Origin: Planctomycetales bacterium
Lineage (GTDB): Bacteria > 4484-113 > JAFGCY01
DNA: 32,000 bases
Assembly (NCBI GenBank): GCA_022646745.1
Contig: CP060262.1
Coordinates: 1,560,001 to 1,592,000, forward strand
Reading direction: 5' to 3'
Shown here piece after piece: positions 2,626 to 32,000 of the stretch. Made by a program: the position numbers and the translations under genes. The notes beneath the pieces were generated by a model. It did not search any database and had not been told where the DNA came from. It was given only the letters and a program-made list of their open reading frames with translations. How positions within the stretch are numbered: position 1 is the first letter of the stretch; every line of letters starts with the position of its first letter.

Positions 2626-2736
2626 CCGGAACCTCTCAGTAGAACATTTCTTGCAGGTGACTACATTTTAGCGAATACCCGGAACGGCATGCCAGAGGCT
2701 GTTCAGGCATCCATGCAGCCTTGCTATAATCCGCCA

Positions 2737-6597: not shown

Positions 6598-6662
6598 CTT
6601 CTGTTCCTCATTGTCAGTTGTCAAATCGGTACGGCCGCTGCCGGTTGCATCATTCCAGGCGG

Positions 6663-9600: not shown

Positions 9601-9764
9601 AACGGCAGGGCAGCCTGGAAGATCTCAGTGCCGGCTGATTGTGACTCGACCGCTGCCGGTAACAGCCTGGCCTCCACCAAAGGGCTGTCAGTTCCCCGGC
9701 CAGCCCCCCCGCAGGCCGTCAGCAGGCAGCAGGCAAGCAGCAGTGATGCTAGCGTTGTGCGCAT
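6663..9764 (-). CDS. Multi-PPC-module lipoprotein, paralog C
   Basis: 1033-aa ORF. N-terminus MRTTLASLLLACCLLTACGG (lipobox LTAC). AAGAGG lies upstream of the ATG. Same module order as B (FEPNDFFANASD, MEPNNDNSNATQL, LEPSDVFADVPE, NEPNDNSGSAALL). Confidence 0.9.
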   Translation of the reverse strand: MRTTLASLLLACCLLTACGGAGRGTDSPLVEARLLPAAVESQSAGTEIFQAALPLDDGQPEDRVPAVSSLSLPGSSFNEASGNVTAGSTTADFNPIAGTSEYAIWRFLGTPQDSIGKVSVTIDSAEAGARYWVAVADYSSGRWDWRGGRDDGSAFETDLAGSPGQHSSAAGYIYVAVLCDTDKALSVGSVSIEYLQRYNVSGVVLDMLDRPLAGVLVTTNLADPQQVFSAADGSFSLAGIPNGNWAVMATLAGHEFFPAATNVTVADADINGLVLRGNPRVSGLVGSDEFEPNDFFANASDMGSGALTGASLGILDDPVDYYSFEVPQEGWYYLEFIGDDSILFPDIKLQNDESANRVASDFTVLSGATWVGYYFQRPGTYYVSVGCEAGAGQYSLSIKPGQTSGFGCYIEDTGDPGDGDDGIFESLRSSRIELRLPDATCTLYSSGNGYVSMQYVAPLPATIVPLDPLYSFEPPQAQHDFSTGDLFNLDFNVSAVAPDDPMEPNNDNSNATQLVLPLSAPITGWIGGESLTNDEYDVFRFESSGNKHLFVQVRFPQNGPLRFIDSGGLALRDSLGNNYTLLADSIFQIDGRSQVALPAQEYFLTLNMDGNLMPYEIWIEEYDPLSLSAYYEYKGVPLEDVKFSYITADASIMNLEYCFAGLAEVEDKFRPGERVLVHHQRYGMQFDPEYEWVEFGTQDIQLTPTATPSTDKLEPSDVFADVPEVQFPVQVEASCSSSTDNYDYYMFSLQGPESLVVQLGCSSPDALVRLRFSKAPSTQVIYDHIGRGDHSFYYRTPDPGDYIVEVSVANAVDLDYSLQINKAGFNVYSISGSLDNGEPSENYLRGYILNHTTGEYREATGSSYLLGYYPNGSYDIQWQISNRNITPSGKTTVAISNADAVLDYSAVYSDKDSNEPNDNSGSAALLTLPVDLTANLDYDNDYLPGGRDTTDYYKFIAPTDGHIELQSMHQENSPADYDLSLFEGSISTLVNIGKFSTDGSSQTMRWNVKAGETYFVKVDGFVDLRYQLLVDYL

Positions 9765-9844
9765 CCGAAGTACCTCTTATTTCATCTGTTTGTAGTCTGT
9801 CCAGGGAAGATCATTCTAGCGAAAAACACGCCGGATTAAGCCCC

Positions 9845-12800
9845 TCATGGCAGGAAGTCGCCGCTGACCACGTACCGCACATCCTCCGTTGACTGGATGT
9901 AGAGATAGTAGGTCAGTCCGGACTTCACTTCATAGCCCAGCCGGCGTGAGCCATTCAGCGGGTTCAACCTGCCGAAGTTGACGATGTTGCCTATGTTTTC
10001 CTCGCTCAGTGAGACCGGAAACACCTCCAGTCCCCCGAACAGCGGCACCACCGTGATCTGGAAGAAGCCGTCCTGGGCCGGCACGAACTTGTAGTAGTCC
10101 CGGCTGTCCTTCCCGCCGACCAGCACGTCGTTGTCATAGTCCAGGCTGGCACTGAAGCTGAAGGGGATCGTAAGCACTGCGCCGGTGTTAGCCGAATCGT
10201 TCGGCTCCAGGTTGTCCTGGTCCACGTAGGTGGCAGTGAAGTTCTGCACCGTATCCGCACCGCTGATCGTGACCGTCACCGCGCCGGGCGGTGAGACGGT
10301 GTGGTTCGAGGTGTACCAGCGCAGGTCGTAGTCCCCATCAGGGTAGGGGCCCAGTTCGTAGTTGCTGCCGCCGTTCGGCCTGTAGACCTCGCCAGTGGTT
10401 TCGTTGACCAGCTGCGTGCCTGCATAGCTCTCCGTCAAGCTGCCGTGGTCCAGCGTTCCGGTGATGTAGTGGACGGGCACAGAAGTCTCTATCTTCAGGT
10501 TGTAGGAAGTCTCGCCAGTGTTGGCGAGGATGGCGAAGGTGTAATCATCATCGTCAGGCAGTTCGAACCAGAAGGTGGAGCTGCCGCGGGCCTTGTGGGA
10601 CCCAAGCTGTGCGCTGCCGGAGGTCTTCTCCACCCAGCACTCCAGTTCCACATCAGTTTCGTCTGGGGTCAGCGTGAGCATCACCGGCCCGGCGCTCATG
10701 CCCTGAACTCCGTAGTAATCAGCGTAGTCAGTCACGGCGCTGATATTGCCATTCACATCCGCCGGAAAGCTGACGACGAAGGGGTCGCTTGCGAAGTCGT
10801 TCGGTTCCGTGGCATCATCCGCCACGCTGATCGCCGGTTCGAGCAGGATGTCCGAGCCGTCGAACTGGATCCACTGCTCCGGCGGGTCAAAGCTCAGGCC
10901 GCGGTGCTTGTAGGAGACGTGCAGCAGCTCCCCGTCCATGAACGGGTCGGAGTCGAAATCCAGCCCGGGGCTGTAGTAGTTGGTCGCGTACCGGTACCCG
11001 GATGGCACGATCTCATACGAAACCCTGCCATAGTCCAGCTCCTTGCCATCCAGTGTGAAGTATACGGACAGCTTTCGTCGCGGGAACTGCAAGACTTCCA
11101 GTTCATAGGGGGTCAGTTCCCCGCTCCAGTAGATGTACAGGTAATAGCTGCCTGCAGGCAGGGGCTGCAGGGTACGCAGTTCTGAATACTGGCCGTGGCT
11201 GTAATCAAGGCAGAACACCTGGCTGTCCATGTCGTCGAACAGGAACATGAAGGGGATCCCGCCTGCCTGGTTCTCCATTTCCGGCAGGTAGGCCCGCAGG
11301 GTCAGGTCCATCCCGTCCTGCACGTCAAAGCTGTAGAAGTCCTGCTCATCATTTAGGGTCAGGTCACGGCCGCCGATGTAGCCGGCATGCGGCTGAGCCA
11401 TCGGCAATGTCAGCGGCACGGCGGACAGCTTGTCATTGTTCGGCTCGTCGCTGTCAACAACTGTTGCCGCACTGAAGTTGAAGTCGACGCCGGACAGGTC
11501 TCCTGATGCGAAGTCATGCTGGATTGCCAGTGGGTCAAATGTATAGCGCTCTGAGTGCGGGGTGATCGTCGCCTCAAGCGGGGGCATGAAGCGGTGGTCG
11601 AGGTATCCGCCTGAACTGGGGATCTCGCAGCTGGAATCCCCAAAATCAACCGTGACGGCGCAGTTGCGCATCTCCTCAGCCAGCCCGTCATCACCATCCC
11701 CCGGAAGGCCCGTGTCAATCAGCTGCATGTCCAGCGAATGGCAACGGCCATCCAGCAGCTCCAGGCTGTAATGCCCGCCGCCACCCTCGCAGTAGACCTC
11801 GACGCGGTACTCGCCCGCCACCGGGAAGTAGTATCCGAGCCAGTTCGTGCCACGTACCACCTCATAGTCCCCGATGTAATCGGAGAACAGGTCGGTCTGC
11901 AGGGAAAGGTGCGGGAACAGGATGCTGTTGTCAGCATTGAGCTGCAGGTAGTGCCAGCCTGCCGTTGCCACCGGGAAGGTGTAGCAGTCGTACTCATCGT
12001 CAAGGGCGCTGATCGTGGCATCCGTCACCATCTCCGGGCCAAGTGGCTCTGCATTCTCCGCCAGGTCGTTGGGCTCGTACAAGTCGTCCGGGAAGCCGAA
12101 GCTGCGCGGGAAGCCCTGCAGCAGCAGACCGTTGACATCGCTGTCCGTGATGTCCACCATGGTCAGGTCCGGATCGAAGCCCCAGTTGCGCAGGGTTGCC
12201 ATCACCGCCCAGCTGCCGGCCGGCAGGCCGTCAAGCCGGAAGCTGCCATCCGCCGCGCTGAGCACCTGCTGCACGTCAAGCAGGTTGGTGGACAGCAGTG
12301 CACCCTCGATCGGGTTGCCGGACTTGTCCTGCACGAAGCCGCTGACGGAATAGCGCTGCAGGTACTGGATGCCAACGGCTGCTATGCTCAGCTGCGAGCC
12401 GGCCTCAGCCAGCACGGCTACATAGATGTAGCCCGCCGGTGAGCTGTACTGGCCGTTGCCACTGCCGGGCACGGCATCGAAGTCCGAGCCGTCCGCCACA
12501 TCCCCGAGCCAGCTCCAGCGCCCGCTGGAATAGTCAGCCAGCGCTGTCCAGTAGCGTGTGCCGGGCTGGGCAGACTCAACGGTGACGTTCACCATCCCAA
12601 GCGCATCATCAGGCGTGCCGCTGAAGCGCCAGATCGCGTACTCGCTGCCTGCCGATACGGCATAATCCGCCAGTTCGCCATTCACGCTGACATTCGTGGA
12701 GGCTTCATTGAATCCGCTGCCCGCTAGCTCGATTGTCGCCAGCGCCGCCACGCGGGAGGGGTTGAAATGCCCCTCATCCGGCAGGGATGTGTTGAATATG

Positions 12801-12925
12801 GCCTGGTGCTCCGTGACGGCAGGCACGATTGCTGATACGGCAACTGAGTCCTGCTGTCCACCCCGGCCTCCGCAGGAGCACAGCAGCAACGAAATGGCAA
12901 TCAGTGTGGATGTAAGGTGTTTCAT
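9845..12925 (-). CDS. Multi-PPC-module lipoprotein, paralog D
   Basis: ORF 9845..12973. Likely start is ATG 12925..12923 (MKHLTSTLIAISLLLCSCGG) with GGGAG about 10 nt upstream. Modules: YEPNDLAENAEPL, DEPNNDKLSAVPL, TEPNDFASDPFVV, LEPNDSANTGAVL. Confidence 0.88.
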   Translation of the reverse strand: MKHLTSTLIAISLLLCSCGGRGGQQDSVAVSAIVPAVTEHQAIFNTSLPDEGHFNPSRVAALATIELAGSGFNEASTNVSVNGELADYAVSAGSEYAIWRFSGTPDDALGMVNVTVESAQPGTRYWTALADYSSGRWSWLGDVADGSDFDAVPGSGNGQYSSPAGYIYVAVLAEAGSQLSIAAVGIQYLQRYSVSGFVQDKSGNPIEGALLSTNLLDVQQVLSAADGSFRLDGLPAGSWAVMATLRNWGFDPDLTMVDITDSDVNGLLLQGFPRSFGFPDDLYEPNDLAENAEPLGPEMVTDATISALDDEYDCYTFPVATAGWHYLQLNADNSILFPHLSLQTDLFSDYIGDYEVVRGTNWLGYYFPVAGEYRVEVYCEGGGGHYSLELLDGRCHSLDMQLIDTGLPGDGDDGLAEEMRNCAVTVDFGDSSCEIPSSGGYLDHRFMPPLEATITPHSERYTFDPLAIQHDFASGDLSGVDFNFSAATVVDSDEPNNDKLSAVPLTLPMAQPHAGYIGGRDLTLNDEQDFYSFDVQDGMDLTLRAYLPEMENQAGGIPFMFLFDDMDSQVFCLDYSHGQYSELRTLQPLPAGSYYLYIYWSGELTPYELEVLQFPRRKLSVYFTLDGKELDYGRVSYEIVPSGYRYATNYYSPGLDFDSDPFMDGELLHVSYKHRGLSFDPPEQWIQFDGSDILLEPAISVADDATEPNDFASDPFVVSFPADVNGNISAVTDYADYYGVQGMSAGPVMLTLTPDETDVELECWVEKTSGSAQLGSHKARGSSTFWFELPDDDDYTFAILANTGETSYNLKIETSVPVHYITGTLDHGSLTESYAGTQLVNETTGEVYRPNGGSNYELGPYPDGDYDLRWYTSNHTVSPPGAVTVTISGADTVQNFTATYVDQDNLEPNDSANTGAVLTIPFSFSASLDYDNDVLVGGKDSRDYYKFVPAQDGFFQITVVPLFGGLEVFPVSLSEENIGNIVNFGRLNPLNGSRRLGYEVKSGLTYYLYIQSTEDVRYVVSGDFLP

Positions 12926-12976: not shown

Positions 12977-15900
12977 TCAGGGCAGGTAATCCCCGGCCAG
13001 CTGGTAAACGATGTCAACATCCGATGTTACATGGATCACGTAATCCTGGCCAGCCTGCAGCTCAAAGGTCAGCCGGTGCACGCCGGTCAGCTCGTCACGT
13101 TGCGCGAGTACCGTGCCGCCATCGGCAGTGCTGCGCAGCTCAAGCTTCAGCTGGCTCAGGGATGGCAGCCAGGGCACGGCCGTTAGCTCAAAGCTGCCCG
13201 TGCCCGGTGCGGTGAATTTGTAGTAGTCCTGGCCATCCCCGAAGGCTCCGACATTGACATCATCGAAGTCCAGGCTGGCAACCGTGCTGATCGGGATGCT
13301 GAGCGGGGTGGCGGCGATGGTGCTGTTGTTCGGCTCCCCGCTGTCATTGCTCTGGTAGCTTGCGGTGAAGTCCTGCACCGCATCCGCGCCATTGACAACC
13401 ACGGTCACGGCTCCGAGCGGTACGGTCAGGTGGTTTGCGATGTACCACTGGATGTCATAGCTTCCCTCCGGTACGAACCCAAGGTCGTATGACGGCCCCG
13501 TGACGGGCAGCACCCTGCCGGTGGTCTGGTTGACGATGAAGCCGCCATCGTACTGGTCGCCGGGTGTACCATGGTCAAGCGATCCGCTGATGCTGTAGAC
13601 CGGCCCGCCGGCCATGTCCATGTCCAGGCTGTAGGTCGATGACCCTCCGTCCGCGCTGAGCCGCAGGATGTAATCGGCCTTTGCCGCTGACCGGTAGTAC
13701 AGCTGCTCATCACCCTGCCCGCTGACGAGCTGGTAGTCGCCGGGTGTACTTTCCCCGTAGAACATGCAGGTCCAGAGCGTGTCCGGGTCCGTCATCTTCA
13801 GGTTTACCGCCACCCCGCCGGCCTCCAGGCCGCCCAGCCGGTAACAGTCGACCTCGTCAGACAGCGAGCTGATGCTGGCAACGACTTCGACAGGCAGCTC
13901 CAGGTCCTCAGTGATCAGTGATGGCAGGGCATTGGGCTCCAGGCTGTCGCTGCCGATTGTCAGCTTCGGGAAGGTGGTCCTGTCCTCGGCGCCGAGCTGG
14001 ATCCACTCCACCGGCGGGTCGATTGCCATCCCGTTGCGCTCATAGGCCAGCTTGATGAACTCACCCTCCATCAGGGGCACTCCAACGGTGGCTGTGCCGC
14101 TGGAGACGTTTTCCGTGTCAGTGTAGTTGCCATCCCCGGTCTGCCAGTGCATCTGCCCGTCAGACAGCGGATTGCCGGACAGCAGCCAGCTGCTGGAGAG
14201 CGTGCGGCCCTCGAACAGGAACAGTTCCAGCTCATAGGCCATCATGGTCCCGCCCATGTCCAGCTGCAGGTAATAGTCGCCCGCCGCCAGCGGGTCCCGG
14301 CTGCGCAGTTCCAGTTGCCAGGGACCTGACATGTCATGGATCTGGACGGTGTTCTCACTGGAATTGAAAAGCCGCAGGTTGCCGGCCATGTCCGGCCCGG
14401 AGGCCTGATCCTCGGGGAAGCGTACCCGGGCCAGTACATATTCGTCCCCCGCTGCGCTGAAGCTGAAGACGTCACGGGCGTCGTTGCCCGTGAGGTCATT
14501 CCCTCCGATGAAGCCCGCAAGCGGCGCTGCCAGTGGCAGGCTGAGTGGGCTGGCCGTGCTGAAGTCGTCATTCGGCTCCATGGAATCCGCCGGCGCCACT
14601 GCGGAAAAATTGAAGTCCGCCACCAGCTGGCCGCTGGAGAAGTCATGCTCAATGCTGGCCGGCTCAAAGGTGTAGCGCGGGCTGACCGGCCGCACCGTGG
14701 CCGGCAGCGGCGGTATGTGGTAGTGCCATAGTTCGAATTCCCCCGGCGTGAGCAGCTTCGCCGTGTATTCCGCGAATTCCAGCTCGATGACGGTGTTGTC
14801 CATCGCCTCCTGCAGGCCGTCGTCACCGTCTCCCGGCGCACCGTTGTCAAACAGCGTGAGGTTCAGGAACTCGCCTCGGCCCTGCTGCAGGTGCAGCTCA
14901 TATTCGCCGCCGCCCGCCTCGCAGCGCACCTCGGCGAAATAGCTGCCCGGCTGCGGAATGTAGAAACTGAACCAGGCGGCCCCGGACAGGCTGTCATAGT
15001 TCAGCCCGGAGAAGATGTCGAGATTGCCCTGCAGCCTGACCGTCGGGAACAGTATGCTGTCATCTCCGCGGAACTCGAGGTAATGCCAGCCCGTCTCGCT
15101 GGCGTCAAAGCTATAGAAGTCCGCTGCGTCATTCAGCACGCTCAACGTCGAACTGACAACCGGGAACTGGTTGATCTGGTGTGCATCGCGGATGATGTCA
15201 TTCGGCTCATACGGATCATTCACCTTCGGCCGCGTGCTGAAGATCTCCCCACGCAGCACCAGCCCTTCCACATCGGCATTGGAAACCCCGACTGTGTTCA
15301 CCAAGGGGTCAAACAGGTAGTTCTCCACGGTCGCAAACACCGACCATGAACCGTTTGGGATGCCGGGCAGGCTGAAGGATCCATCCTCCGCGCTGAACAC
15401 CTGGCGCGGGTCCGCGAGGTTGGTGGTGACCAGTGCCCCGGCAATCGGGTGCCCGCCGTAGTCCAGCACATGGCCACTGATGTCGTAGCGGTTGAGGTAC
15501 TCCAGTGTGAGCCTGTCCACTGCGAAGCCCGCATTGCCGTTGCTTATGATGGCGACGTAGATGTAGCCGGCCCCGGAACTGTGCATGCCTGGCTCGCCGG
15601 CAACGTCAAAATTGTCACCGCCGGCTTCCCCTGTGCCACCGAGCCATTGCCAGCGGCCAGTGTCGTAGTTGGCAATCCCGGCCCAGTAGACGAAGCCCGG
15701 CTGCTCCCCACTGGTCTGGATGCTGAGGCTGCCTATGCTGTCGAGCGGGGCTGCTTCAAAACGCCAGATCGCGTAGTGCAGTTCACCCTGTGGGTCAAAC
15801 AGCGCCGCCGGACTGGCTGAGCCAACGTTGGAGCTGGCTTCATGGAACTGCTCACCGTCCTTCGCCAGGCTGGAAACCGCAGGCACGCGGGTGCTGTCGA

Positions 15901-16063
15901 AACCGCTGTCTGCAGGCAGTGATGCGTTGAAGACCCCGAGCTGGTCGAGCTCTGTGGCGGGGACCGGAATCTGCCGGGCCTCGCCGTCGAACTGTCGCTT
16001 GCCATTGCATGCGGAGAGGATCAGGATCGAAAGTAAGATCGCAGGAATCAGATTGCGGTCCAT
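12977..16063 (-). CDS. Multi-PPC-module lipoprotein, paralog E
   Basis: 1028-aa ORF. N-terminus MDRNLIPAILLSILILSACNG (lipobox LSAC). GAAGGAAG lies upstream. Modules: YEPNDIIRDAHQI, MEPNDDFSTASPL, LEPNALPSLITE, GEPNNSTIAATPL. Confidence 0.9.
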   Translation of the reverse strand: MDRNLIPAILLSILILSACNGKRQFDGEARQIPVPATELDQLGVFNASLPADSGFDSTRVPAVSSLAKDGEQFHEASSNVGSASPAALFDPQGELHYAIWRFEAAPLDSIGSLSIQTSGEQPGFVYWAGIANYDTGRWQWLGGTGEAGGDNFDVAGEPGMHSSGAGYIYVAIISNGNAGFAVDRLTLEYLNRYDISGHVLDYGGHPIAGALVTTNLADPRQVFSAEDGSFSLPGIPNGSWSVFATVENYLFDPLVNTVGVSNADVEGLVLRGEIFSTRPKVNDPYEPNDIIRDAHQINQFPVVSSTLSVLNDAADFYSFDASETGWHYLEFRGDDSILFPTVRLQGNLDIFSGLNYDSLSGAAWFSFYIPQPGSYFAEVRCEAGGGEYELHLQQGRGEFLNLTLFDNGAPGDGDDGLQEAMDNTVIELEFAEYTAKLLTPGEFELWHYHIPPLPATVRPVSPRYTFEPASIEHDFSSGQLVADFNFSAVAPADSMEPNDDFSTASPLSLPLAAPLAGFIGGNDLTGNDARDVFSFSAAGDEYVLARVRFPEDQASGPDMAGNLRLFNSSENTVQIHDMSGPWQLELRSRDPLAAGDYYLQLDMGGTMMAYELELFLFEGRTLSSSWLLSGNPLSDGQMHWQTGDGNYTDTENVSSGTATVGVPLMEGEFIKLAYERNGMAIDPPVEWIQLGAEDRTTFPKLTIGSDSLEPNALPSLITEDLELPVEVVASISSLSDEVDCYRLGGLEAGGVAVNLKMTDPDTLWTCMFYGESTPGDYQLVSGQGDEQLYYRSAAKADYILRLSADGGSSTYSLDMDMAGGPVYSISGSLDHGTPGDQYDGGFIVNQTTGRVLPVTGPSYDLGFVPEGSYDIQWYIANHLTVPLGAVTVVVNGADAVQDFTASYQSNDSGEPNNSTIAATPLSIPISTVASLDFDDVNVGAFGDGQDYYKFTAPGTGSFELTAVPWLPSLSQLKLELRSTADGGTVLAQRDELTGVHRLTFELQAGQDYVIHVTSDVDIVYQLAGDYLP

Positions 16064-16114: not shown

Positions 16115-16813
16115 CTAGTTACCGGAGCCTGCCGGGGGCTGGGCCTGTTCCTGCTGCTCGGCTGCCTTCTGGCGCTCCTCGAGGAAGTCCGGATGCCGTT
16201 CCTCCCATTCCGCCAGATAGTTGTACGCCGCCTCACCGGTCGGCTTGTGCTCCAGCACGACATTTGCCGTCATGCTGGATTCGCTGGAATTGTCCTGGGT
16301 AAACACCAGCTGCAGGTTGTCCTCGCTGCCCCAGATCCACTGCGTACCGGGCAGGCGTTCCTCCACCGGCTCGCCGTACAGGTCCACCAGGCGCTGGCGC
16401 CATTCATCGGCCTGTGGGGCGGAGATGCCCTCGATGCGGTCCACGATGATGTACAGCTGGTCACGGTAGAAGGACAGGGTCAGCGTGCGGCGTGGCATGC
16501 CCTCATCCTCGCGCTCGAACTCGATCACATGCGTCTGCACATCGTCGTAGTCCTGCAGGCCGCGGAAGAAGCCCTCGCCCTTGCCCTGCGGCGCGTTGTA
16601 GATCTGCGAGAGGTCCAGGGTGCTCATCCCGAGCTTCAGCCCGTCGTAATGCAGGAGCGCTCCCTCGGCCGGGATCACGTCCGCCGGCTGGAAGGCCGGG
16701 TTAGGCTTTGCGTTGCCAGTCTTGCTCTTCTCGCCTTCCTCGGGCTGGCGGCAGGCGGACAGTGTTGCCAGCATTGCCAGCATGCAGATCGTCAGCAGGA
16801 TGCGCATCAGCAT
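16115..16813 (-). CDS. Small lipoprotein, unknown function
   Basis: 232-aa ORF. N-terminus MLMRILLTICMLAMLATLSACRQ (lipobox LSAC). Lies 51 nt upstream of paralog E. Its ATG is 3 nt after the TAG of the preceding gene (TAG AAT ATG). Confidence 0.75.
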   Translation of the reverse strand: MLMRILLTICMLAMLATLSACRQPEEGEKSKTGNAKPNPAFQPADVIPAEGALLHYDGLKLGMSTLDLSQIYNAPQGKGEGFFRGLQDYDDVQTHVIEFEREDEGMPRRTLTLSFYRDQLYIIVDRIEGISAPQADEWRQRLVDLYGEPVEERLPGTQWIWGSEDNLQLVFTQDNSSESSMTANVVLEHKPTGEAAYNYLAEWEERHPDFLEERQKAAEQQEQAQPPAGSGN

Positions 16814-16816
16814 ATT

Positions 16817-17554
16817 CTACCCGTCCTGCCCCGTGACGTCCTCGCCTTCCGTCGCCGTGCCGATCGCCATCCCGGCGCGCAGCTCCTCCAGCCAGCCGTC
16901 CACGAATTCCAGCTCATAGGCCGGGTGCCGCCAGTTGCCGGAATACTGCAGGCTGGTCGGCCCGGTCAGTTCGATGATGGTCTTGCCCTTCGGCAGCTCG
17001 GCATCGCCCTGCACCTCGCGCAGGTTGAGCTGCTGCTCCACATTGGCCTCGCGCAGGTCCGCCACCCATGGGTCCCATTTCTCGTCGTTGTAGATCGTGT
17101 CCAGCTCCAGCTCATATGACTCAATCACGTCACCGGCGGCGGTGATCCGCAGGCCGTCCGTGTCCAGCCGGGCACGGTCCGAGCCAAGCGCGGTCAGCTT
17201 CCACTCCACACCCCATTCGCGGGTGGTGCGCAGCACCTCACCCTGGCTGCCGAAGACCCGCAGCCCGATCCCGAGACCATCGTCCAGCAGGCGCAGGTCC
17301 ACCTGCCTGTGTGGAATGTCGATGCGCTCCGCCACCGGCTGCGGGATCTGCTCCTGGTATTCCGGCAGCAGGCTGCCGCGGTGCTGCCAGGCGTACCAGA
17401 CAAGCCCGATGCCGACGATGAAGGGCAGGGCCACGATGAAGATGAACCCGAGCTGGACGCTGTGCGCCTTCTTGCGGCGCGCCGGTTTGCCACCATCCGC
17501 CTTGCGCTGGCTGCGGCTGTTGCGGTATGCCTTCTTCCAGGGATCCTGGCTCAT
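16817..17554 (-). CDS. Single-pass membrane-anchored protein, unknown function
   Basis: 245-aa ORF. Basic N-terminus (KKAYRNSRSQRKADGGKPARRKK), one TM helix (LGFIFIVALPFIVGIGLVWYAW), then a ~180-aa soluble domain. Confidence 0.7.
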   Translation of the reverse strand: MSQDPWKKAYRNSRSQRKADGGKPARRKKAHSVQLGFIFIVALPFIVGIGLVWYAWQHRGSLLPEYQEQIPQPVAERIDIPHRQVDLRLLDDGLGIGLRVFGSQGEVLRTTREWGVEWKLTALGSDRARLDTDGLRITAAGDVIESYELELDTIYNDEKWDPWVADLREANVEQQLNLREVQGDAELPKGKTIIELTGPTSLQYSGNWRHPAYELEFVDGWLEELRAGMAIGTATEGEDVTGQDG

Positions 17555-17580
17555 GCCTGCTTCTCTCCACCTTGCATTGT

Positions 17581-17877
17581 TCAGTCATGCCCCTCGGCGA
17601 ACACATCCATGATCAGGTCCTCCTCGTCATCCGAGAGGAACTCCTCGAACACCGTGTTCGCCGGGTCATCGGCTGCCACGCTGTAATACAGTGTGTACAG
17701 CCCCTGGCGCACACTGTAGTACCTGCGCTTGCTGCGCGCAGATGTATGCACCAGCCGGTACTTCGCCCGCCCTTTCACCACGTCCGCCACCGCGCGCTCG
17801 AACTCCGCGTAGCGCTTGGTATCGAACATCGGCACGCGCCTGTTCAGTGCATCGCTGACAACGACCCGGATGCTCAT
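17581..17877 (-). CDS. Small (98 aa) hypothetical protein, first gene of the minus-strand cluster
   Basis: ORF with GGAG 4 nt upstream of the ATG and an acidic C-terminus (LSDDEEDLIMDVFAEGHD). Any RelE/ParE-like resemblance is too weak to call. Confidence 0.55.
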   Translation of the reverse strand: MSIRVVVSDALNRRVPMFDTKRYAEFERAVADVVKGRAKYRLVHTSARSKRRYYSVRQGLYTLYYSVAADDPANTVFEEFLSDDEEDLIMDVFAEGHD

Positions 17878-17950
17878 TGCTCCATCTTAGGCCACAGCCG
17901 GGGGAATGTGGATCAGCTGTGGAAAAGCCGCTGCAATATATACGTTTGTT

Positions 17951-17959
17951 TGCTATAAT
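17951..17959 (+). promoter_or_regulatory. Extended -10 element TGCTATAAT in the divergent intergenic region
   Basis: Exact TGnTATAAT at 17951..17959, upstream of the 18020 gene. The opposite strand of the same region carries TCAACA-N18-TATATT for the 17877 cluster. No experimental support. Confidence 0.4.
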
Positions 17960-18019
17960 GTTGACGTGGTTGAGAATAAAAGGGGTGGCCATGCCGCAGG
18001 GGCACGCGGCAGGCACACA

Positions 18020-18742
18020 GTGCTGCGCAGGCTGAGCGGTCTGGCATGGACCGGGCTTGTGCTGGTTCTGCTCGCCCTGGCCTGGCAGTGGTGGGCCTTC
18101 AACCTCTCCGGACGCCTGAGCCTCTCCCAGCAGATTTCCGCAGATGAGTTCCAGCGCGGCTTCTCCTTCGGCCCGGTCTACATCCAGGAAGGCGTGGTCG
18201 GCCGCTACTACATCAGCGCCACCCTGCCGGATACCCCGGAGGGCATGTGGATCAGCCGCTTCGAGGTGCGTGATGCATCCGGCCTGCCGGTATTCGGGCA
18301 GGACGAGGTCAGGCTTTACGGCGAGCACAGCTTCCGTCCGGGGATGCAAGACCGCATCCGCAAGCAGTTCAGCCTGGACCGCGAAACCGGCTACTACTAC
18401 TTCCATTTCAAGAGTGAGAACGGCGTATTCAACGCGAACCAAAGCGCGCCCCCGGTGGTCGAATTCAATGTCAGGCAGGGTGTGGTGCATGGCATGGCGC
18501 TATGGCTGCCCTTCGGCTGCCTGCTGCTGCTTGGTCTCGTCCTGAGCGGGGTCAGCCTCTGGCTGCGGATGCAGTTTGCGGGGCTTGAGGAAGACGGTTC
18601 CCCCTCCGGTGATGGGGAGCGCCAGCCAAAGGTGGTGGTCCCGCGCCAGCCGGCCGGTCCGCAGCCCGCCGGCAGCAGCGGTGTCAGTGCGCTCGGCCGC
18701 CGGCATGACCGGCTCAGTGAGGGCCGGGGCAAGCTGCGCTGA
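18020..18742 (+). CDS. Hypothetical membrane protein with N- and C-terminal TM helices (start uncertain: ATG 17906, GTG 17966 or GTG 18020)
   Basis: ORF 17906..18742. The GTG at 18020 would give MLRRLSGLAWTGLVLVLLALAWQWWAF, a signal or TM segment. A second TM is ALWLPFGCLLLLGLVLSGVSLWL. The ATG at 17906 lies upstream of the putative -10 element. Confidence 0.6.
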   Translation: MLRRLSGLAWTGLVLVLLALAWQWWAFNLSGRLSLSQQISADEFQRGFSFGPVYIQEGVVGRYYISATLPDTPEGMWISRFEVRDASGLPVFGQDEVRLYGEHSFRPGMQDRIRKQFSLDRETGYYYFHFKSENGVFNANQSAPPVVEFNVRQGVVHGMALWLPFGCLLLLGLVLSGVSLWLRMQFAGLEEDGSPSGDGERQPKVVVPRQPAGPQPAGSSGVSALGRRHDRLSEGRGKLR

Positions 18743-18777
18743 AAAGCCTGCTGTGATAACATTTAACCGGATCAGCC

Positions 18778-19194
18778 ATGGCGACAAACAACGACCCGCT
18801 GCCGATAGACTTCGGCAAGGGCGAAAAAAATCATGACTCGGCGGACGGACACAAGACCTGCGGACAGTGCGGCGGTCAGGCCGTGCGCGGGGACCTCTCC
18901 TCCGTTGCCAACTTCGGCGTGACCCGTGAACCACACTTCGTGACGAGCTACGGCTGGATGCAGGTCAAGTATGACCGCGCCACCCCGATCGACGTCTACA
19001 TGTGCCTGTCCTGCGGACACATCAGTTTCTACGGGCGCCAGCCGATGTCAGTGCTGGACCCGATCGAGCGCCAGCAGCTGCTGCGTGATGAGAACCCGGC
19101 CCTGGACAGGAAGCTCAAGCGCGAGGAAAAACGCCGCAGCGAGCTGGAGAAGAAGGGCCGCCCGCTGGACAGCGACGACCACACCGGAATCTGA
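18778..19194 (+). CDS. Zinc-ribbon protein with a basic and acidic coiled C-terminal tail
   Basis: 138-aa ORF with two CxxC pairs (CGQCGG ... CLSCGH). Confidence 0.65.
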   Translation: MATNNDPLPIDFGKGEKNHDSADGHKTCGQCGGQAVRGDLSSVANFGVTREPHFVTSYGWMQVKYDRATPIDVYMCLSCGHISFYGRQPMSVLDPIERQQLLRDENPALDRKLKREEKRRSELEKKGRPLDSDDHTGI

Positions 19195-25508: not shown

Positions 25509-26330
25509 ATTTTCATAGTTTCGGATCAACACCTCCATTCTCGTGTTGCCACGGCGTTTCTGGCGACTCAAGTTGCACGTTCGCACAAGATAGGAGTAGT
25601 TCCATTTCGGAAATGGATAGAGGATCTCCAGTAACGGGTGCGCAAAGTAGCTGACAGCTGCTTTTGACTGGCAGAGATTGAGGCACTTTGCCAGAGCCAG
25701 ATGATCATCCAGACGGAATTCTCCACCTTCGGCATAAACAGACTCTGTGCCCAGGTAGGGTGGGTCACAGTAGACTAGGGTGGATTGTGAATCATATCGA
25801 TAGATGATCCTCTCAAATCCATCACTCTCAATGACAACATTCATCAGCCGTTTTTACGCCATGGCTGCATCCAGTATCTTGCTTCGGTTTCTGAATGTCC
25901 GATTCTGATGCTTCCCGGTTCCGAAGCCACCACCAGTGATTCCTCCAAACGAATTGAGGTTGAGATACCAGCAGCGGGCGGCAAACTGAATGTCAGTCAT
26001 TACGCCGGGATAGCCATCCTTGAGCCAGCGGAGATCCTTCCTGTAAAGATCCCTTGAGATAGGCAGCTCGCTGATTTCACGAACCAGCTCGTGGTAGTGA
26101 TGCTTGATGCAAAGCATGAAGGTGACAAGTGCGCTGTCAATGTCGTTGTAGACCTCGACGTCTACAGGATCTCTGTTCAGCAGAAGTGCCGCACTGCCGC
26201 CAAAAGGCTCCACGTAAGTCTTGCACTCCACATCGATCAATGGCAGTATCCAGTTTGCCAATCTGGTTTTTCCGCCGACCCATACACAAGGTGTTCTCAC
26301 TTTCAATTCAAGTCCCTCCCGGATTGTCAA
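25506..26330 (-). pseudogene. Dam-like (D12 class) N6-adenine DNA methyltransferase interrupted by a single in-frame TAA
   Basis: ORF 25854..26330 carries the N-terminal half (VWVGGKTRL, SAM motif YVEPFGGSAALLL, NDID). ORF 25506..25844 carries the catalytic half (LVYCDPPY). The junction on the minus strand reads GAT GCA GCC ATG GCG TAA AAA CGG CTG ATG AAT GTT, i.e. D A A M A * K R L M N V, all in one frame. The N-terminal start is probably TTG 26306 (GGGAGGG 7 nt upstream) or GTG 26300, not the track start. Confidence 0.75.
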
Positions 26331-26433
26331 TGAATCTTAAGGTAATTGCCTATTATCCTTACATTGGACAACCTTCCAAGGGAGAGAGCTGTTAGCCTGC
26401 TACTTTAACAATCTTGTCAGCTTGTAGGCACTG

Positions 26434-27549
26434 TCACAGCCCATCCACTGCATCAAGCAAATGCTCCTTAATCTCCATGGCGCTGCCAGCGAGGTTCACG
26501 GTGGCGAAGCGCAGGTTGTGGCCCTGGATGCAGACGGTTTCGCAGTAGTGCGTGTCGATTGCCGGGTGCAGCAGCATCCCGGATGCCGCATCCGCAAGCA
26601 GGTCTCCTTGATTGATTTGAGAGAACAGGTAGGTGTACAGCTGGTAGATGTAGCCGCTTTTGAGCTTCTCCCGGCCAAACTGGTTGGCCTTCACGATTTC
26701 CGTGAACTTCGTGTCGATTACGATTCGCCTGTCAGAGCTGTGATGCTCAAGTACGATATCGGTCCTCATTTCAGGCATCAGCTCAGCAATGCGCCAGGTC
26801 TCTTCCGTTCTGTCCCAGGCCAGTTTGCGGCCGGTCACGACCTTCCAGCCTCCCGGAGTGAGCATCACGTCATAGAATCCAGCAACAGCCTGCTCAAACA
26901 ACTGGCGCAGCCACTTCTCCTCACGGTCCGGGCGCTCGAGCCTGCGTGGGCCTGCCGATTCTGCAGGAATTGCAAACTCAAGCATCAACCGTGCCGCTTC
27001 CAGCATCTTCTGGTCATGCCGGTCATTGAAGCCTGACCTGTCTGAATTCAGTTCAGCCGGAGTCGGCATCCTTCCGCTGACTCCCATCCGGCTCAGACCG
27101 TCGCACAGGTCTCGGCAGCGCCGGACCAGACTCTTGTCCTTGACAAGGTGGGAGGCGCGCTCCAGTGCAGCCATTACATAACGGTTGCGCGGGCTGTCCA
27201 CTGTCAACTCACTGAAATGGCAATGGATACTGCCCTGGCTGAGCAGTGATCGTCTCTCAGTCCTGAGCAGGTCTATCCGGCCACGTACACGCTGAACATC
27301 AGCACTGCGGGTGCTAAAGCTGTAATTCAGGCTGCGTCTCAGGCGGACCTCGACAATCCTCGCAAGGTACTCAGCGACGAGATCAGGAATCTGGTCCGGG
27401 TTATCTTCCACGCCTGCTTTGTTGAACTCCTGCTGATTGCGCAGGCGCGAGGCATACAGCATCAGAAGCCAGATGTTGCGCACGGGGATTCTGCCCACAA
27501 ATGCCTGGGCTGTCTCTGTTCCTTCGTGTGCCAACACCTGATCAGTCAT
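26434..27549 (-). CDS. mcrC: McrC-like nuclease subunit of a type IV (McrBC) restriction system
   Basis: 371-aa ORF starting 2 nt after the McrB-like stop (TAG GA ATG). The C-terminal PD-(D/E)xK-like motif (MRTDIVLEHHSSDRRIVIDTKFTE) matches the McrC pattern PD...D-x-K. Confidence 0.75.
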   Translation of the reverse strand: MTDQVLAHEGTETAQAFVGRIPVRNIWLLMLYASRLRNQQEFNKAGVEDNPDQIPDLVAEYLARIVEVRLRRSLNYSFSTRSADVQRVRGRIDLLRTERRSLLSQGSIHCHFSELTVDSPRNRYVMAALERASHLVKDKSLVRRCRDLCDGLSRMGVSGRMPTPAELNSDRSGFNDRHDQKMLEAARLMLEFAIPAESAGPRRLERPDREEKWLRQLFEQAVAGFYDVMLTPGGWKVVTGRKLAWDRTEETWRIAELMPEMRTDIVLEHHSSDRRIVIDTKFTEIVKANQFGREKLKSGYIYQLYTYLFSQINQGDLLADAASGMLLHPAIDTHYCETVCIQGHNLRFATVNLAGSAMEIKEHLLDAVDGL

Positions 27550-27551
27550 TC

Positions 27552-29801
27552 CTACAGATCCCTCAGCAGGTCCTGGCTGGCCTTGTCGACTGCTTCCGGA
27601 TTGTCATACCAGTACTCGCGCAGCAGAGGCATGATCTCCGTATTGACAACCTGCCGGAACCAGTTGACAGGGTCCTTGATCTCCTGGCCCCGGGCCGGCG
27701 TGAGGTAGCTGTGCCCTACACAGAACTGACTTCCGAGGGTTGGGCTACTTGAGATTGTGGAGTTCAGGTCAGCAAGCCTGCGTTCAAAATCGCGGCAAAG
27801 CGACGCAGACATTCCATACTGTTCGCCCATCCAGCTGCGCCATGCCTCACCAAGGCGTGGCTCCAGGTCCTGGAAGGCAAATCGCCTGCGTAAAGCGTAA
27901 TCCACAAGCGCCAGCGAGCGGTCGGCGATGTTCATCGTGCCAATGATGTACAGGTTGGCCGGCACATACATCGGCTTGTCGCCCTTGACTCCATAGCTCA
28001 GTTCAATCGCGGCGTCAGGTGTGCGCTTGTCAGCCTCAATCAGGGTCAGCAGCTCACCGAAGATCTGGGCGGGATGGCCCCGGTTGATTTCCTCAATTAC
28101 AAGTACATACTGATTTGAGGCATCCTGCAGTGCCTGGTTGGCAATCTCCAGAAATGGTCCGTCAACCAGCTCCAGTCTGCCATCTCCGGATGGACGCCAG
28201 CCGCGCACGAAATCCTCATATGACAGGTTCGGATGGAACTGTACGCTGCGGACCCGTGGCTTGGCTTTCTCTCCCATCAGGGCATACGCCAGGCGGCGTG
28301 CCAGCCAGGTCTTACCCGTTCCCGGAGGTCCCTGCAGTATCAGGTTGCGCTTGCTGCGTAGTCGATCCACAATTGCATCCACCTCATCATGTGACAGGAA
28401 ACAGCCGTCGTTGATGATGTCACGGGTGGAGTAAGGGTCGAAAGCCTGGACTGGAGATTCTGAGATCTCCTCAGATTCATGAATTACCTCTTCTGCCTCA
28501 GCAACTTCAAGGTCATCAAACCTGTCGCCACCGACAGCCTCGATATCCGCGAGATGTGACAACTCGGGGAATGAATGTGCTGGAAAGTCCACCTCCTGGA
28601 ATCGCTGTTCCAGAGAATCCTTAAGCGCCAGCAGATCTGCTGCTTCTGCAATTCTCTTGTAGTGGCTTCTGCCAATCTTCATTTTCAGACGTTTTTCAAT
28701 GAACGCACGAGAGGGGCCATCCAGCGTCGGGTACGTCCAGGGGCGAATCCAGAATAATCCAGTACTCAAACGCCAGCTAGCTCCACGCACGTCAAGGGCT
28801 GCGTCATATGCTTGGATGAAGTAGTCTTCGCTTGCCGTATCCTGCAAATCCGCGAACTCGATACCCGCTTCGAAGGCTGTCCAAAGCCTATCCATGTCAT
28901 CTGATTCGCGAAGATAGTGCCAACCGAAGAACCAGGAATTCTGATTGTTCAGTCGTGGAATTCCTCGGAACGAATTGATCCTTCCAACCTTGACCCCAAG
29001 AAAGGAAGCAATTCTTTCAAGGGACGCACGCCGGTTGTCTTCGGTAGTCTGCCGGTTGAAGATTCCCATGACAGTGAATGGGCAGATATCCTCCAATGGA
29101 AACGGCCGTCCCTTTGCGTCGCGATCTTCCATTGGAGTGAATGGATCAAGTTCCTCGTCCATTTCATGCAATGCCCTGACCAATTCACTTCTGTCATCCT
29201 TGAATTGCAGCAAGGCGTCAGCTATGCGTTCGTAAGCTTCCGTCCAGGGGAATAGGTCCTGTGCCGTGGACTTCCTGCCAAATCGCTCGGCCCAGAATGG
29301 ATCATTGCAGAACTTGTCATAGTCCTGCTCCCCTCCGGCGAATGCGAACTCGATGAGTGCCTTGCGCATCCAGTCGCTTGCCTCAACCTTCCAGATTGTC
29401 GTTCGGTTCGTGAAGAAGTACCATTCCCAGACAGGATCGACTTCCCACCACTCAACATTCAGGTGTCTGCCATCGAGAGAATTTCTTGTCACCTTGCCAA
29501 TGGCCTTGATTGCCATCGTGCTGACCGGGAGCCCCTTATTGTCAAAAGGTAGGTCCTTCTTGCGGATATAAGAGGACTTTATTGCGATCAGGTCGCCTGG
29601 CCTGACCGAGCGGACCAGGTCCAGGTACTTGTCTTCGTATCCGTTTTCCCAGATACCCTCGCTGATGAAGCGCTCGGTTTCGTCTCCAGCGCCAGTTGCA
29701 GCTCCTACAAACCAGCATGTATGTTTCAATGCATCTTCAACTGATAGCTTCAAGTGTTCTTCTCCAAAGCGAGGCTGCTCTGAGCAAACCCACCATCCCA
29801 A
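27552..29801 (-). CDS. mcrB: McrB-like AAA+ GTPase subunit with a long N-terminal extension (start uncertain: TTG 29801 or TTG 29753 with GGAG 8 nt upstream)
   Basis: Walker A LILQGPPGTGKT (codons verified at 28308..28334), Walker B VLVIEEINRG, McrB signature IIGTMNIADRS (E. coli MNTADRS), RRRFAF. About 455 residues precede the AAA+ core region. Confidence 0.85.
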   Translation of the reverse strand: MGWWVCSEQPRFGEEHLKLSVEDALKHTCWFVGAATGAGDETERFISEGIWENGYEDKYLDLVRSVRPGDLIAIKSSYIRKKDLPFDNKGLPVSTMAIKAIGKVTRNSLDGRHLNVEWWEVDPVWEWYFFTNRTTIWKVEASDWMRKALIEFAFAGGEQDYDKFCNDPFWAERFGRKSTAQDLFPWTEAYERIADALLQFKDDRSELVRALHEMDEELDPFTPMEDRDAKGRPFPLEDICPFTVMGIFNRQTTEDNRRASLERIASFLGVKVGRINSFRGIPRLNNQNSWFFGWHYLRESDDMDRLWTAFEAGIEFADLQDTASEDYFIQAYDAALDVRGASWRLSTGLFWIRPWTYPTLDGPSRAFIEKRLKMKIGRSHYKRIAEAADLLALKDSLEQRFQEVDFPAHSFPELSHLADIEAVGGDRFDDLEVAEAEEVIHESEEISESPVQAFDPYSTRDIINDGCFLSHDEVDAIVDRLRSKRNLILQGPPGTGKTWLARRLAYALMGEKAKPRVRSVQFHPNLSYEDFVRGWRPSGDGRLELVDGPFLEIANQALQDASNQYVLVIEEINRGHPAQIFGELLTLIEADKRTPDAAIELSYGVKGDKPMYVPANLYIIGTMNIADRSLALVDYALRRRFAFQDLEPRLGEAWRSWMGEQYGMSASLCRDFERRLADLNSTISSSPTLGSQFCVGHSYLTPARGQEIKDPVNWFRQVVNTEIMPLLREYWYDNPEAVDKASQDLLRDL

Positions 29802-30042: not shown

Positions 30043-32000
30043 ATGCAGTCCTTAAGCAGCATCAAAGGCGGCTTCCTGCGTTTCATTTCCATCCTTGCGA
30101 TGTCCATCACCGCGATTGCCTGCTACTCCTGTTCCGTGGGCAGGCAGCCTGTGGAGCAGGCATCATTCGGTCAGCTGCAGGGAGCGCAACCTGTGGATAT
30201 GCAGGCAGTCTGGCCGGATAGTATCCCGCAGGACCGCATGCAGCCCTGGGAAGAGCTTGGTGCTGACGGGTATGTGATCCCTGCGGGCAAGGGGACGAGT
30301 GCGATCAACCTTGAAAGCGAATTCATTCCCGGCGTGGAGCGCTTCAGCTCCAGTGGCGACGTGAATGACAACGGCGAGGCCAGCCGCATTGCGAGCCAGG
30401 CCGGCACGACGAGCCAGGCGATGTACCGCATCCCGCTGGGCGGCGGGCATCCGGGCGTTGTCAGCGTGGATGCCAACCTGCTGGCGGGCAAGGGCTACTA
30501 CCTCGGGCTGGCCAACTACGGCAGTGCCCGCTGGCAGTGGTATGGCCCCTTCACTGACAACCACGTGCGCATTTCGACAGCCCTGCAGGGCCCCTATACA
30601 TCCAGCCTCGGCAGCCTGTTCGTCAGTGTGCTCGTGCATGGCGGCGGTGCAGCTGATGTGGTGGGCATTGGCATCAATAATGAAGATGCGGCTGACACAA
30701 CAGCACCACCGCAGCCCAGCGGACTGGCCGTTACCCCGCTTGACGGCGGCCTGCTGCTGGACTGGGACCCTGTGATTGCCGGCGACCTGGCCGGCTACCG
30801 CATCTACCACAGTGATGGTATGTTCAGCAGTGGATCCGCAGCCGGAGTCAGCCATGTTGACAGCCTTGAAGGGCTGACGCAGCACCAGCTTTGGTCTGAC
30901 CCGGGCAGCCTGCGCTACATCCGCGTCAGCGCGATTGACATTTCCGGCTACGAATCCCCGCTGAGCGACATCGTCAGTGACTCCCCGCTGGATGGAAGCG
31001 CTCCGGCAATGGTGATCCTTGTTGACAAGCCCAGCGGCTCGCTTGCGGAGGGCATTGCCCTGACAGCCAGTGGTGCAGACAGCTATGACATTGATGTGGA
31101 CGGCGACGGTACGTACGACATCACCGGTGCTGCAACAGGCACCGCCCAGGTTGACACTTCCCGGCTCGGCATCATTCGCCCGCGTGTGCGGGGAACGGGC
31201 GTGGAAGGCACAGCAATTGCCCACGGCTCCGTCAGCCTGGTCATCTCCGGCAACAGCCGCCCTGTGGCGGTGGCCATCTCGGATGTGGCATCCGGAACAG
31301 CTCCGCTTGCGGTCACATTCAGCGGTACTGACAGCACGGACTTCGACGGCAGCATCGTCGGTGGCGGCTGGGACTTCGACGGCGACGGTACATACGAGGT
31401 CTGGGACGACACGGACATCGTGCATGTCACCTCGGCAATGCATACATACACGCAGCCTGGCACCTACAACGCCAAGCTGCGGGTTGTCGACGACAAGGGT
31501 GCCTGGGATGTGGACACGGTTACGGTGACTGTCTCTCCTCCAGCCGGCAACATCCCACCGGTGGCCATCCTGCGCGGTTCGCAGTTCACCGGTGATGACA
31601 AGATCGGCATTGAATTCAGCGCGATGGATTCCCACGACCCGGACGGCAGCATCCTTGACTACGAGTGGGACTTCGATGGTGACGGGATCTTCAACGAGCC
31701 CGGCGCAGAGGCTGACAACCGTGGTGAGGTGAATCCGTCGCAGCAGGCCTATTACGCCGGTCCCCCGGTGGCTGTCGGGCTGCGGGTGACTGACAACGAG
31801 GCTGCCACCAGTTCAACAAGCTTCACGGTGATAGTCCACGGCTGGTTTGTCCAGGCAGTGGATACGACAGACAATGTCGGCCGGTACACCTCCCTGGCGG
31901 TGGTCGACGGCAACCCGGCGATCAGCTATTTTGACGTGACGAACACTGAGCTTATGTATGTGCGGGCCGGCAATCCCCAGGGCAGTGCCTGGGGAACGCC
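30043..32000 (+). CDS. Secreted protein (possibly a lipoprotein) with the shared N-terminal module, an FN3-like domain and three PKD-like domains; partial, continues past the right edge
   Basis: Not in the ORF track because there is no stop. I translated frame 1 from ATG 30043 to the window end codon by codon and found no stop. N-terminus is MQSLSSIKGGFLRFISILAMSITAIACYSC, a signal peptide with an imperfect lipobox. FN3-like: PSGLAVTPLDGGLLLDWDP...YRIYHSD...IRVSAIDISGYESP. PKD signatures: TAPLAVTFSGTDSTDFDGSIVGGGWDFDGDGTYE...YTQPGTYNAKLRVVDDKG and FSAMDSHDPDGSILDYEWDFDGDG...VGLRVTDNEA. The antisense 490-aa ORF 30163..31635 is a shadow. Confidence 0.85.
   Translation, partial: MQSLSSIKGGFLRFISILAMSITAIACYSCSVGRQPVEQASFGQLQGAQPVDMQAVWPDSIPQDRMQPWEELGADGYVIPAGKGTSAINLESEFIPGVERFSSSGDVNDNGEASRIASQAGTTSQAMYRIPLGGGHPGVVSVDANLLAGKGYYLGLANYGSARWQWYGPFTDNHVRISTALQGPYTSSLGSLFVSVLVHGGGAADVVGIGINNEDAADTTAPPQPSGLAVTPLDGGLLLDWDPVIAGDLAGYRIYHSDGMFSSGSAAGVSHVDSLEGLTQHQLWSDPGSLRYIRVSAIDISGYESPLSDIVSDSPLDGSAPAMVILVDKPSGSLAEGIALTASGADSYDIDVDGDGTYDITGAATGTAQVDTSRLGIIRPRVRGTGVEGTAIAHGSVSLVISGNSRPVAVAISDVASGTAPLAVTFSGTDSTDFDGSIVGGGWDFDGDGTYEVWDDTDIVHVTSAMHTYTQPGTYNAKLRVVDDKGAWDVDTVTVTVSPPAGNIPPVAILRGSQFTGDDKIGIEFSAMDSHDPDGSILDYEWDFDGDGIFNEPGAEADNRGEVNPSQQAYYAGPPVAVGLRVTDNEAATSSTSFTVIVHGWFVQAVDTTDNVGRYTSLAVVDGNPAISYFDVTNTELMYVRAGNPQGSAWGT

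Follow-up and report, generated by a model that had tools for sequence, protein, structure and literature searches.

Why would lipoproteins with unlike C-terminal parts begin with one and the same module, and what could this module do next to the lipid anchor? The question is raised by a locus of a Planctomycetales bacterium (GenBank assembly GCA_022646745.1, contig CP060262.1, positions 1,560,001 to 1,592,000); the whole stretch of 32,000 nucleotides is referred to below as the window. It encodes a tandem array of five paralogous lipoproteins, P0, PA, PB, PC, and PD, which are 39-54% identical to each other over the full length, and a modular lipoprotein with PKD domains, here called the PKD protein (Table 1). 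The original prediction was that all six proteins share an N-terminal module and that the PKD protein is otherwise unrelated to the paralogs; a role in sorting, anchoring, or surface export was suggested. The analysis described here shows that the module marks out a large, as yet unnamed family of modular lipoproteins, which has been found to date only in the candidate phylum UBP7 and in similarly unclassified metagenome-assembled genomes (MAGs), where it is strongly expanded and often arranged in tandem. Taken jointly, the homology, fold, position, lipobox, and taxonomic setting of the module family appear to us to be established almost beyond doubt.

A module common to six lipoproteins

The core of the module corresponds to positions 30295..30678 of the window, that is, to residues 85-212 of the PKD protein. 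A hidden Markov model (HMM) with a seed of four paralogs and the PKD segment was scanned against the six-frame translation of the window and identified exactly six copies, the next best match having an E-value of 0.13; in the PKD protein the envelope of the match covers residues 85-218. Because this HMM contained the PKD sequence itself, it was rebuilt from the five paralogs alone. With the rebuilt profile, residues 100-212 of the PKD protein score 36.5 bits, compared with at most 12.0 bits for 5000 shuffled versions of this N-terminus. Comparison of the PKD protein with PA by BLASTP yielded E-values of 9e-8 for the N-termini and 4e-7 for the full-length sequences, with 26% identity. Finally, hhalign aligned ten PKD-type modules with 13 paralog-type modules, two sets that have no common sequences, over 117 columns with a probability of 99.1% and an E-value of 1.6e-18. 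Thus, the formal alignment of the PKD protein N-terminus with the paralogs, on which the original prediction had made the homology depend, is significant. As the module is the sole significant segment in the full-length comparison (the next best segment has an E-value of 0.17), the PKD protein and the paralogs are indeed otherwise unrelated.

The pairwise identity of the module copies is only 23-29%, and an open reading frame of 490 amino acids lies on the opposite strand of the PKD gene (30163..31635). Both observations could be taken to mean that the similarity arose by chance or from composition, or that overlapping frames in GC-rich DNA were misread. However, this explanation is refuted by the shuffling of the N-terminus, by the hhalign comparison, by 580 database relatives with the module in the same position, and by confident and concordant structure models of both subfamilies, and we consider its probability practically nil. 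The plus-strand frame, moreover, carries PKD domains and has full-length homologues, P0009 (939 amino acids) and P0007 (1442 amino acids).

The folded unit is larger than the core. It begins at approximately residue 57 of the PKD protein, ahead of position 30295, because an N-terminal arm with the motif WPxxIPxDxxQPWE packs on the sandwich in the AlphaFold2 model.

One more observation concerns the PD copy. The database representative P0001 looks identical to PD by eye, except for a replacement of W by R in the module motif YAIWRF (YAIRRF; PD residue approximately 100, window positions 15770-15790). The replacement affects a conserved position and could reflect strain variation or an error of sequencing.

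Family assignment and fold

The original prediction could not assign the module to a named family, and the database searches agree with this. Pfam produced neither a CBM (carbohydrate-binding module) family nor any recurrent family at E<=1 for 44 diverse module segments, and no match over the module itself in 52 diverse members of the family. The module has no match in NCBIfam, and a profile search against the sequences of the PDB gave nothing below an E-value of 0.38.

The AlphaFold2 model of residues 53-222 of the PKD protein, based on the 44-sequence alignment, has a mean predicted local distance difference test score (pLDDT) of 92.5 and a predicted template modelling score (pTM) of 0.88; it contains 11 beta-strands, with the arm confidently packed. 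An independent model of the PA module, made from paralog-type sequences only, shows the same order of 11 strands (pLDDT 79.9, pTM 0.80). A Foldseek search of the PDB with both models retrieved CBM6 (2cdp, 2cdo, 5fui), CBM86 (6sgf), domain III of Cry toxins, and the K2-2 tailspike; CBM29, CBM36, CBM35, CBM22, and the ligand-binding domain of the ephrin receptor were retrieved with one or the other model. The E-values of these matches range from about 5e-5 to 1e-3, the target-normalised template modelling (TM) scores from 0.53 to 0.64, and the identity from 10 to 18%. For CBM6 (2cdp, 2cdo) the E-values are 5e-5 to 3e-4 and the TM scores 0.53-0.59; CBM86 (6sgf) has TM scores of 0.60-0.64. In a viral library, lectin-like domains of phage tail fibres and tailspikes were found at the same level of scores. 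Both models have the beta-jelly-roll fold of CBM6, a likeness that holds at the level of the fold only.

The models therefore place the module, as a new sequence family of about 135-160 residues, in the common CBM6-like, or 'galactose-binding-domain-like', jelly-roll class. A match to a generic immunoglobulin-like or lectin fold with an established function had been named in the original prediction as a reason to abandon it. At the fold level this situation has arisen, since the module is modelled as a CBM6-like jelly roll; at the family level there is no match, and no established function comes with the fold.

Among the top-ranked neighbours, domain III of the Bacillus thuringiensis Cry toxins (Cry11, Cry4, Cry1Ac, Cry5B) is also a lectin-like jelly roll. 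There it forms the C-terminal part of a pore-forming toxin of three domains, and it has nothing else in common with the module (10-15% identity, TM score of about 0.5). Two further candidates that were considered, the LolA/LolB-like lipid-binding folds and the 'handle' domains of Neisseria surface lipoproteins, are not among the fold matches.

Family size, position, and lipid anchor

In a search of 1.84 billion representative proteins, the module profile matched 580 clusters (at 50% identity) at E<=1e-3, 150 at E<=1e-10, and eight at E<=1e-30. The position of the module was analyzed in the best 150 of the 580 matches: in 149 of them it is effectively single-copy and starts at residue 6-134. 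P0128, a 3465-residue Calx-beta-like repeat protein with eight weak stretches, was rejected as a repeat- or composition-driven match that does not belong to the family. A word-indexed protein search, which is insensitive here, yielded no matches for a five-sequence alignment and four short 'hypothetical protein' matches for the single PKD module; the 44-sequence module alignment contains no conserved stretch of 7-10 columns.

An aligned lipobox cysteine precedes the module in 134 of the 135 N-terminally complete sequences, and its column is invariant in the 52 diverse full-length members. In the 135-sequence alignment, position -3 is L in 78 sequences, position -2 is A, S, or T, and position -1 is S, A, or G in 133. 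Positions +2 and +3 are Gly or Ser, acidic residues making up only 5% at +2..+6. The family thus follows the pattern of signal peptidase II substrates, [LVI]-[ASTVI]-[GAS]-C. The five window paralogs carry the lipoboxes LTAC, LASC, LTAC, LCSC, and LSAC; that of the PKD protein, Y-S-C, is weaker and less canonical, and its Cys30 aligns with the family cysteine column.

The resulting architecture is fixed: a signal peptide ending in L-[AST]-[SAG]-C, Gly or Ser at +2 and +3, a poorly conserved tether of approximately 25-60 residues, one module, and variable passenger domains. The family consensus reads lipobox ... LPxDxxQPWE ... F.PGveRF ... GeA ... AiYR ... PG.vsvDvN ... YyvGlaDYg.gRW.W.GPf.d.hvR ... 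SplGN.FVaVl ... DVVGvG.

Passenger domains

The original prediction assigned different C-terminal architectures to the six proteins. Within the window there are only two, that of the five paralogs and that of the PKD protein; the varied passengers are found in the rest of the family. Pfam domains downstream of the module were identified in the 52 diverse members, with 25 of the 32 families found being listed. The most frequent are PKD (30 of 52 members), CarboxypepD_reg (eight), and PQQ or other beta-propellers (six); further matches are to Sde0182_C, BNR_2, SBBP, PPC, Y_Y_Y, and SdrD_B, and one is to FGE-sulfatase, the sole clear enzyme domain among the listed families, which include no catalytic family of glycoside hydrolases, lyases, or esterases.

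The segment directly following the module was classified in 149 proteins. It is an FN3-like region with the motif DLAGY in 92 and CarboxypepD_reg in 24, while five sequences are truncated. The remaining 28 comprise variants of these two types, SBBP-like propellers, VDGxPAIxY repeats, CxxCH (planctomycete-cytochrome-like) segments, PKD domains, PQQ propellers, and a beta-helix-like region. Outside the window, the module is thus directly followed by no fewer than eight kinds of domain, which bears out the prediction of a shared head in front of different passengers. The passengers are very diverse and mostly represent non-enzymatic, beta-rich, binding-type domains. Among them are stalks of FN3 and PKD domains that bear beta-propellers, and combinations of CarboxypepD_reg with PPC-like repeats. 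Given this diversity and the constant first place of the module, we conclude that it is a genuine mobile domain, which recombines independently and without exception comes first. Proteins of the PKD type have a conserved stalk, which opens with the module and continues with the FN3-like region, another conserved region, and a PKD domain. The order in the PKD protein of the window is signal peptide, tether, module, FN3-like region, PKD domains, and repeats of the VDGNPAISY type.

These data bear on one explanation suggested by the fold, namely that the module is a true substrate-binding CBM that binds an environmental polysaccharide, and that its carriers capture nutrients or particles. The best structural neighbours are CBM6, CBM29, CBM35, CBM36, CBM61, CBM86, and the lectin-like domain III of Cry toxins, and the aromatic residues Y, W, and W of the motif ADYxxGRWxW are conserved. 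As a rule, CBMs are found at variable positions, often in several copies. The module, by contrast, is always first and single. It shares the general fold and size of CBM6, 29, 35, 36, and 86 (e.g., 2CDP, 2CDO, 6SGF) but differs from them in the lack of profile similarity, even at the permissive threshold mentioned above, in the lack of an attached glycoside hydrolase or lyase catalytic domain among the listed families, and in its fixed place beside a lipid anchor. In addition, the invariant aromatic residues lie in a beta-hairpin and may belong to the core. We therefore regard a substrate-binding function as rather unlikely.

Taxonomic range and genomic context

With a ten-sequence alignment of the PKD type and two peptide patterns that reach PKD-type members only, a single genome of each GTDB species was scanned. 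The scan identified 27 module loci in nine MAGs, all of them titled 'UBP7', unclassified 'bacterium', or 'Planctomycetales bacterium'. These loci contain 40 distinct module genes, often two to four in tandem, with at least 12 in the near-complete MAG AC1.30 (JAWLAZ01) and at least 11 in HKST-UBA03. The closest locus, L004 from HKST-UBA01, has 79% identity to the window module. UBP7 has no entry in the NCBI taxonomy; three MAGs of this candidate phylum were described in a set from activated sludge (PMC8495973), to which the HKST-UBA isolate names appear to belong. The window locus itself was found again in Logan and ENA assemblies.

At the L004 locus (JAGRNR010000067.1, 5857..9991), the frame of the module gene, 5857..7656 from stop to stop, overlaps the frame 7409..9991 with a PQQ propeller and PKD. 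The two frames appear to be one module lipoprotein gene that a frameshift or an assembly error has divided.

No family of genes adjacent to the module genes recurs beyond four or five loci among the 27, and several such groups come from apparently syntenic loci. Recurring SusC/D-like neighbours were not found, and the context does not resemble polysaccharide utilisation loci (PULs). Homologues of the five small genes that flank the paralog array in the window (16115..16813, 16817..17554, 17906..18742, 18778..19194, and 2536..3426) were not found within 6 kb on either side of the module genes at any of the 27 other loci; they occur only in L001, which is the same locus as the window. Scans of JGI (Joint Genome Institute) metagenomes with the lipoprotein 16115..16813 and with the paralog-type module yielded no confirmed relatives.

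This distribution bears on the proposal, part of the original prediction, that the module is the recognition element for the genes at 16115..17877: with their homologues near none of the 27 other loci, no neighbour family recurrent beyond four or five loci, and no JGI relative of 16115..16813, the proposal is not supported.

A more general form of the same idea is that a dedicated outer-membrane machinery, perhaps including the products of 16115..17554, recognizes the folded module and flips or anchors a subset of lipoproteins at the surface. In favour of such an export handle, the module occurs strictly as one N-terminal copy and in lipoproteins only, while its passengers vary widely; the existence of a lipoprotein without the module (16115..16813) means that the module could mark such a subset, and the arm LPxDxxQPWE is highly conserved in the PKD type. 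However, no gene family recurs widely beside the module genes, neither the pair 16115..17554 nor the genes at 17906..19194 and 2536..3426 being found in the flanks of the other loci, and the lipoprotein 16115..16813 is without relatives in the JGI metagenome scan.

The known surface-lipoprotein signals are a short acidic peptide after the cysteine (the lipoprotein export signal, LES, of Bacteroidota), a C-terminal domain (the CTD of the type IX secretion system, T9SS), and C-terminal barrel lobes (the substrates of Slam). The module proteins resemble neither of the first two, as positions +2..+6 are rich in Gly and Ser rather than acidic, as LES would require after Cys+1, and 149 of the 150 listed matches have the module at the N-terminus, whereas the T9SS CTD is a C-terminal beta-sandwich. 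N-terminal jelly rolls are not known to serve as such signals. The fold neighbours, moreover, are all glycan-binding modules. Recognition of the module by a partner is hence improbable; a possible variant is a single-copy machinery that is encoded elsewhere and acts in trans. In its most specific form, where the jelly-roll head would be a folded sorting or docking domain that marks a subset of lipoproteins for surface display or anchoring by a UBP7-specific machinery, the idea has only a slim prospect of being correct. If true, it would have a bearing on the display of lipoproteins in diderm bacteria outside the model phyla, and would add a new type of surface-localisation signal, a whole domain as opposed to a short peptide or a C-terminal tag.

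Proposed role of the module

The data as a whole are best accounted for if the module is a membrane-proximal base domain, CBM-like and specific to its lineage, an explanation that we consider about equally likely to be right or wrong. In this scenario, the module lipoproteins would be lipidated and then most probably delivered to the outer membrane by a Lol-type pathway, because an LptD-like protein is encoded in the window and the lipoproteins lack Asp at +2. The module would be the first folded unit beside the lipid anchor and could serve as a common base, or pedestal, that keeps the variable binding domains off the membrane. Docking on a glycan is conceivable because of the CBM-like fold; the module may attach to lipopolysaccharide or exopolysaccharide of the cell's own envelope, fixing the orientation of the protein. 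By analogy with the systems described next, a base or spacer role with possible glycan docking is plausible, with chances that we put somewhat below even.

A similar design is known in Bacteroidota, where the BACON, DUF1735, and SusE/F N-terminal domains of surface lipoproteins were proposed to be membrane-bound spacers, as opposed to units for catalysis or primary binding (PMC11216935). Like the module, these are phylum-restricted beta-sandwiches that come first after a lipoprotein signal peptide and precede varied C-termini. Unlike the module, they are Ig-like sandwiches encoded in PULs and fused mostly to C-termini with carbohydrate-active enzymes or CBMs. The module is a larger jelly roll (~135-160 amino acids) from UBP7-type MAGs, has a context that is not PUL-like, and has PKD, FN3, PPC-like, and beta-propeller domains as its main fusion partners. 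Its segments do not match BACON or DUF1735 in Pfam (44 segments), and BACON, DUF1735, and SusE/F are not among its top-ranked fold neighbours.

Several observations weigh against a base domain with glycan docking. In the PKD type, conservation of the module does not exceed that of the ~300 residues after it, so that its constraint is not distinguishable from that of the remaining stalk. The structural matches are at the fold level only (TM scores of about 0.45-0.64, 10-18% identity). The positions invariant in both subfamilies (one W, one Y, G, S, and G) look like core residues, and no family-wide conserved ligand site is evident in the alignments of both subfamilies. With a tether of 25-60 residues, the module need not touch the membrane. 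Any function ascribed to the module is one that we infer, and exposure at the surface, as opposed to a periplasmic location, is assumed.

With the present evidence, the finding is a solid but unsurprising new domain. The family of at least 580 clusters at 50% identity lies beyond the searched Pfam and NCBIfam collections and organises a major, expanded set of envelope lipoproteins in a barely known, uncultured candidate phylum. The HMM and the fold class provide a handle for the annotation of hundreds of 'hypothetical' or 'PKD domain-containing' proteins. Moreover, the design known from Bacteroidota, in which one lineage-specific N-terminal sandwich carries many different surface modules, is paralleled in a second phylum by a domain of another fold.

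Gene content of the window

The features of the window are listed in Table 1.

Table 1. Module copies, their genes, and neighbouring genes in the window, in order of position.
Feature	Position	Strand	Comment
P0 paralog gene	1..2625	-	Tandem lipoprotein; runs off the window, C-terminus outside it
Module copy in P0	2023..2478	-	HMM E-value 2.6e-65; P0 is outside the seed alignment
Small gene beside the paralog array	2536..3426	+	No Pfam match
PA paralog gene	3508..6597	-	Tandem lipoprotein, ~1030 amino acids
Module copy in PA	6001..6456	-	HMM E-value 8.1e-75; 'paralog B' of the original prediction
PB paralog gene	6663..9764	-	Tandem lipoprotein, ~1030 amino acids
Module copy in PB	9159..9617	-	HMM E-value 5.6e-74
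PC paralog gene	9845..12925	-	Tandem lipoprotein, ~1030 amino acids
Module copy in PC	12338..12793	-	HMM E-value 3e-71
PD paralog gene	12977..16063	-	Tandem lipoprotein, ~1030 amino acids
Module copy in PD	15473..15928	-	HMM E-value 5.5e-71
Small lipoprotein, 232 amino acids	16115..16813	-	No family match
Small membrane-anchored protein, 245 amino acids	16817..17554	-	No family match
Small genes beside the paralog array	17906..18742, 18778..19194	+	No Pfam match
LptD_N-containing protein, 1113 amino acids	19341..22682	+	Weak LptD_N/LptA match, residues ~314-387
PKD-type modular lipoprotein gene	30043..32000	+	Partial, runs off the window end; Pfam PKD_4 twice
Signal peptide of the PKD protein	30043..30132	+	Ends at lipobox Cys30, codon 30130..30132
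Full folded module of the PKD protein	30211..30687	+	~Residues 57-215; N-terminal arm and 11-strand beta-sandwich; from AlphaFold2, HMM, and consensus

The G+C content drops steadily along the paralog array, from 0.624 in PD through 0.610 in PC, 0.596 in PB, and 0.595 in PA to 0.535 in P0. The gradient could result from duplications of different age, from recombination with a foreign copy, or from a local composition effect.

None of the five small genes that flank the array has a match in Pfam, and none of the four that were compared with NCBIfam matched there. One of them encodes a 138-residue protein with two CxxC-type cysteine pairs (CGQCGG ... CLSCGH).

In the 1113-residue LptD-like protein, the LptD_N match is preceded by approximately 300 low-complexity residues, which include tandem AEKETPPAN repeats. 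As judged from its sequence, the product would be an unusually extended LptD-like outer-membrane protein.

Further genes of the window are sucD, an NmrA-like gene, an McrBC pair, and a D12 methylase that is truncated. The restriction pair consists of McrC (26434..27549, minus strand) and a 749-residue AAA_5 protein with a long N-terminal extension (27552..29801, minus strand). It is adjoined by the D12 adenine methylase fragment (25854..26330, minus strand), which covers about half of the Pfam model. This part of the window, 25854..29801, has the lowest G+C content, 0.52-0.56 compared with ~0.62 elsewhere. It has the appearance of a defence islet that was acquired and lies immediately upstream of the PKD lipoprotein gene.

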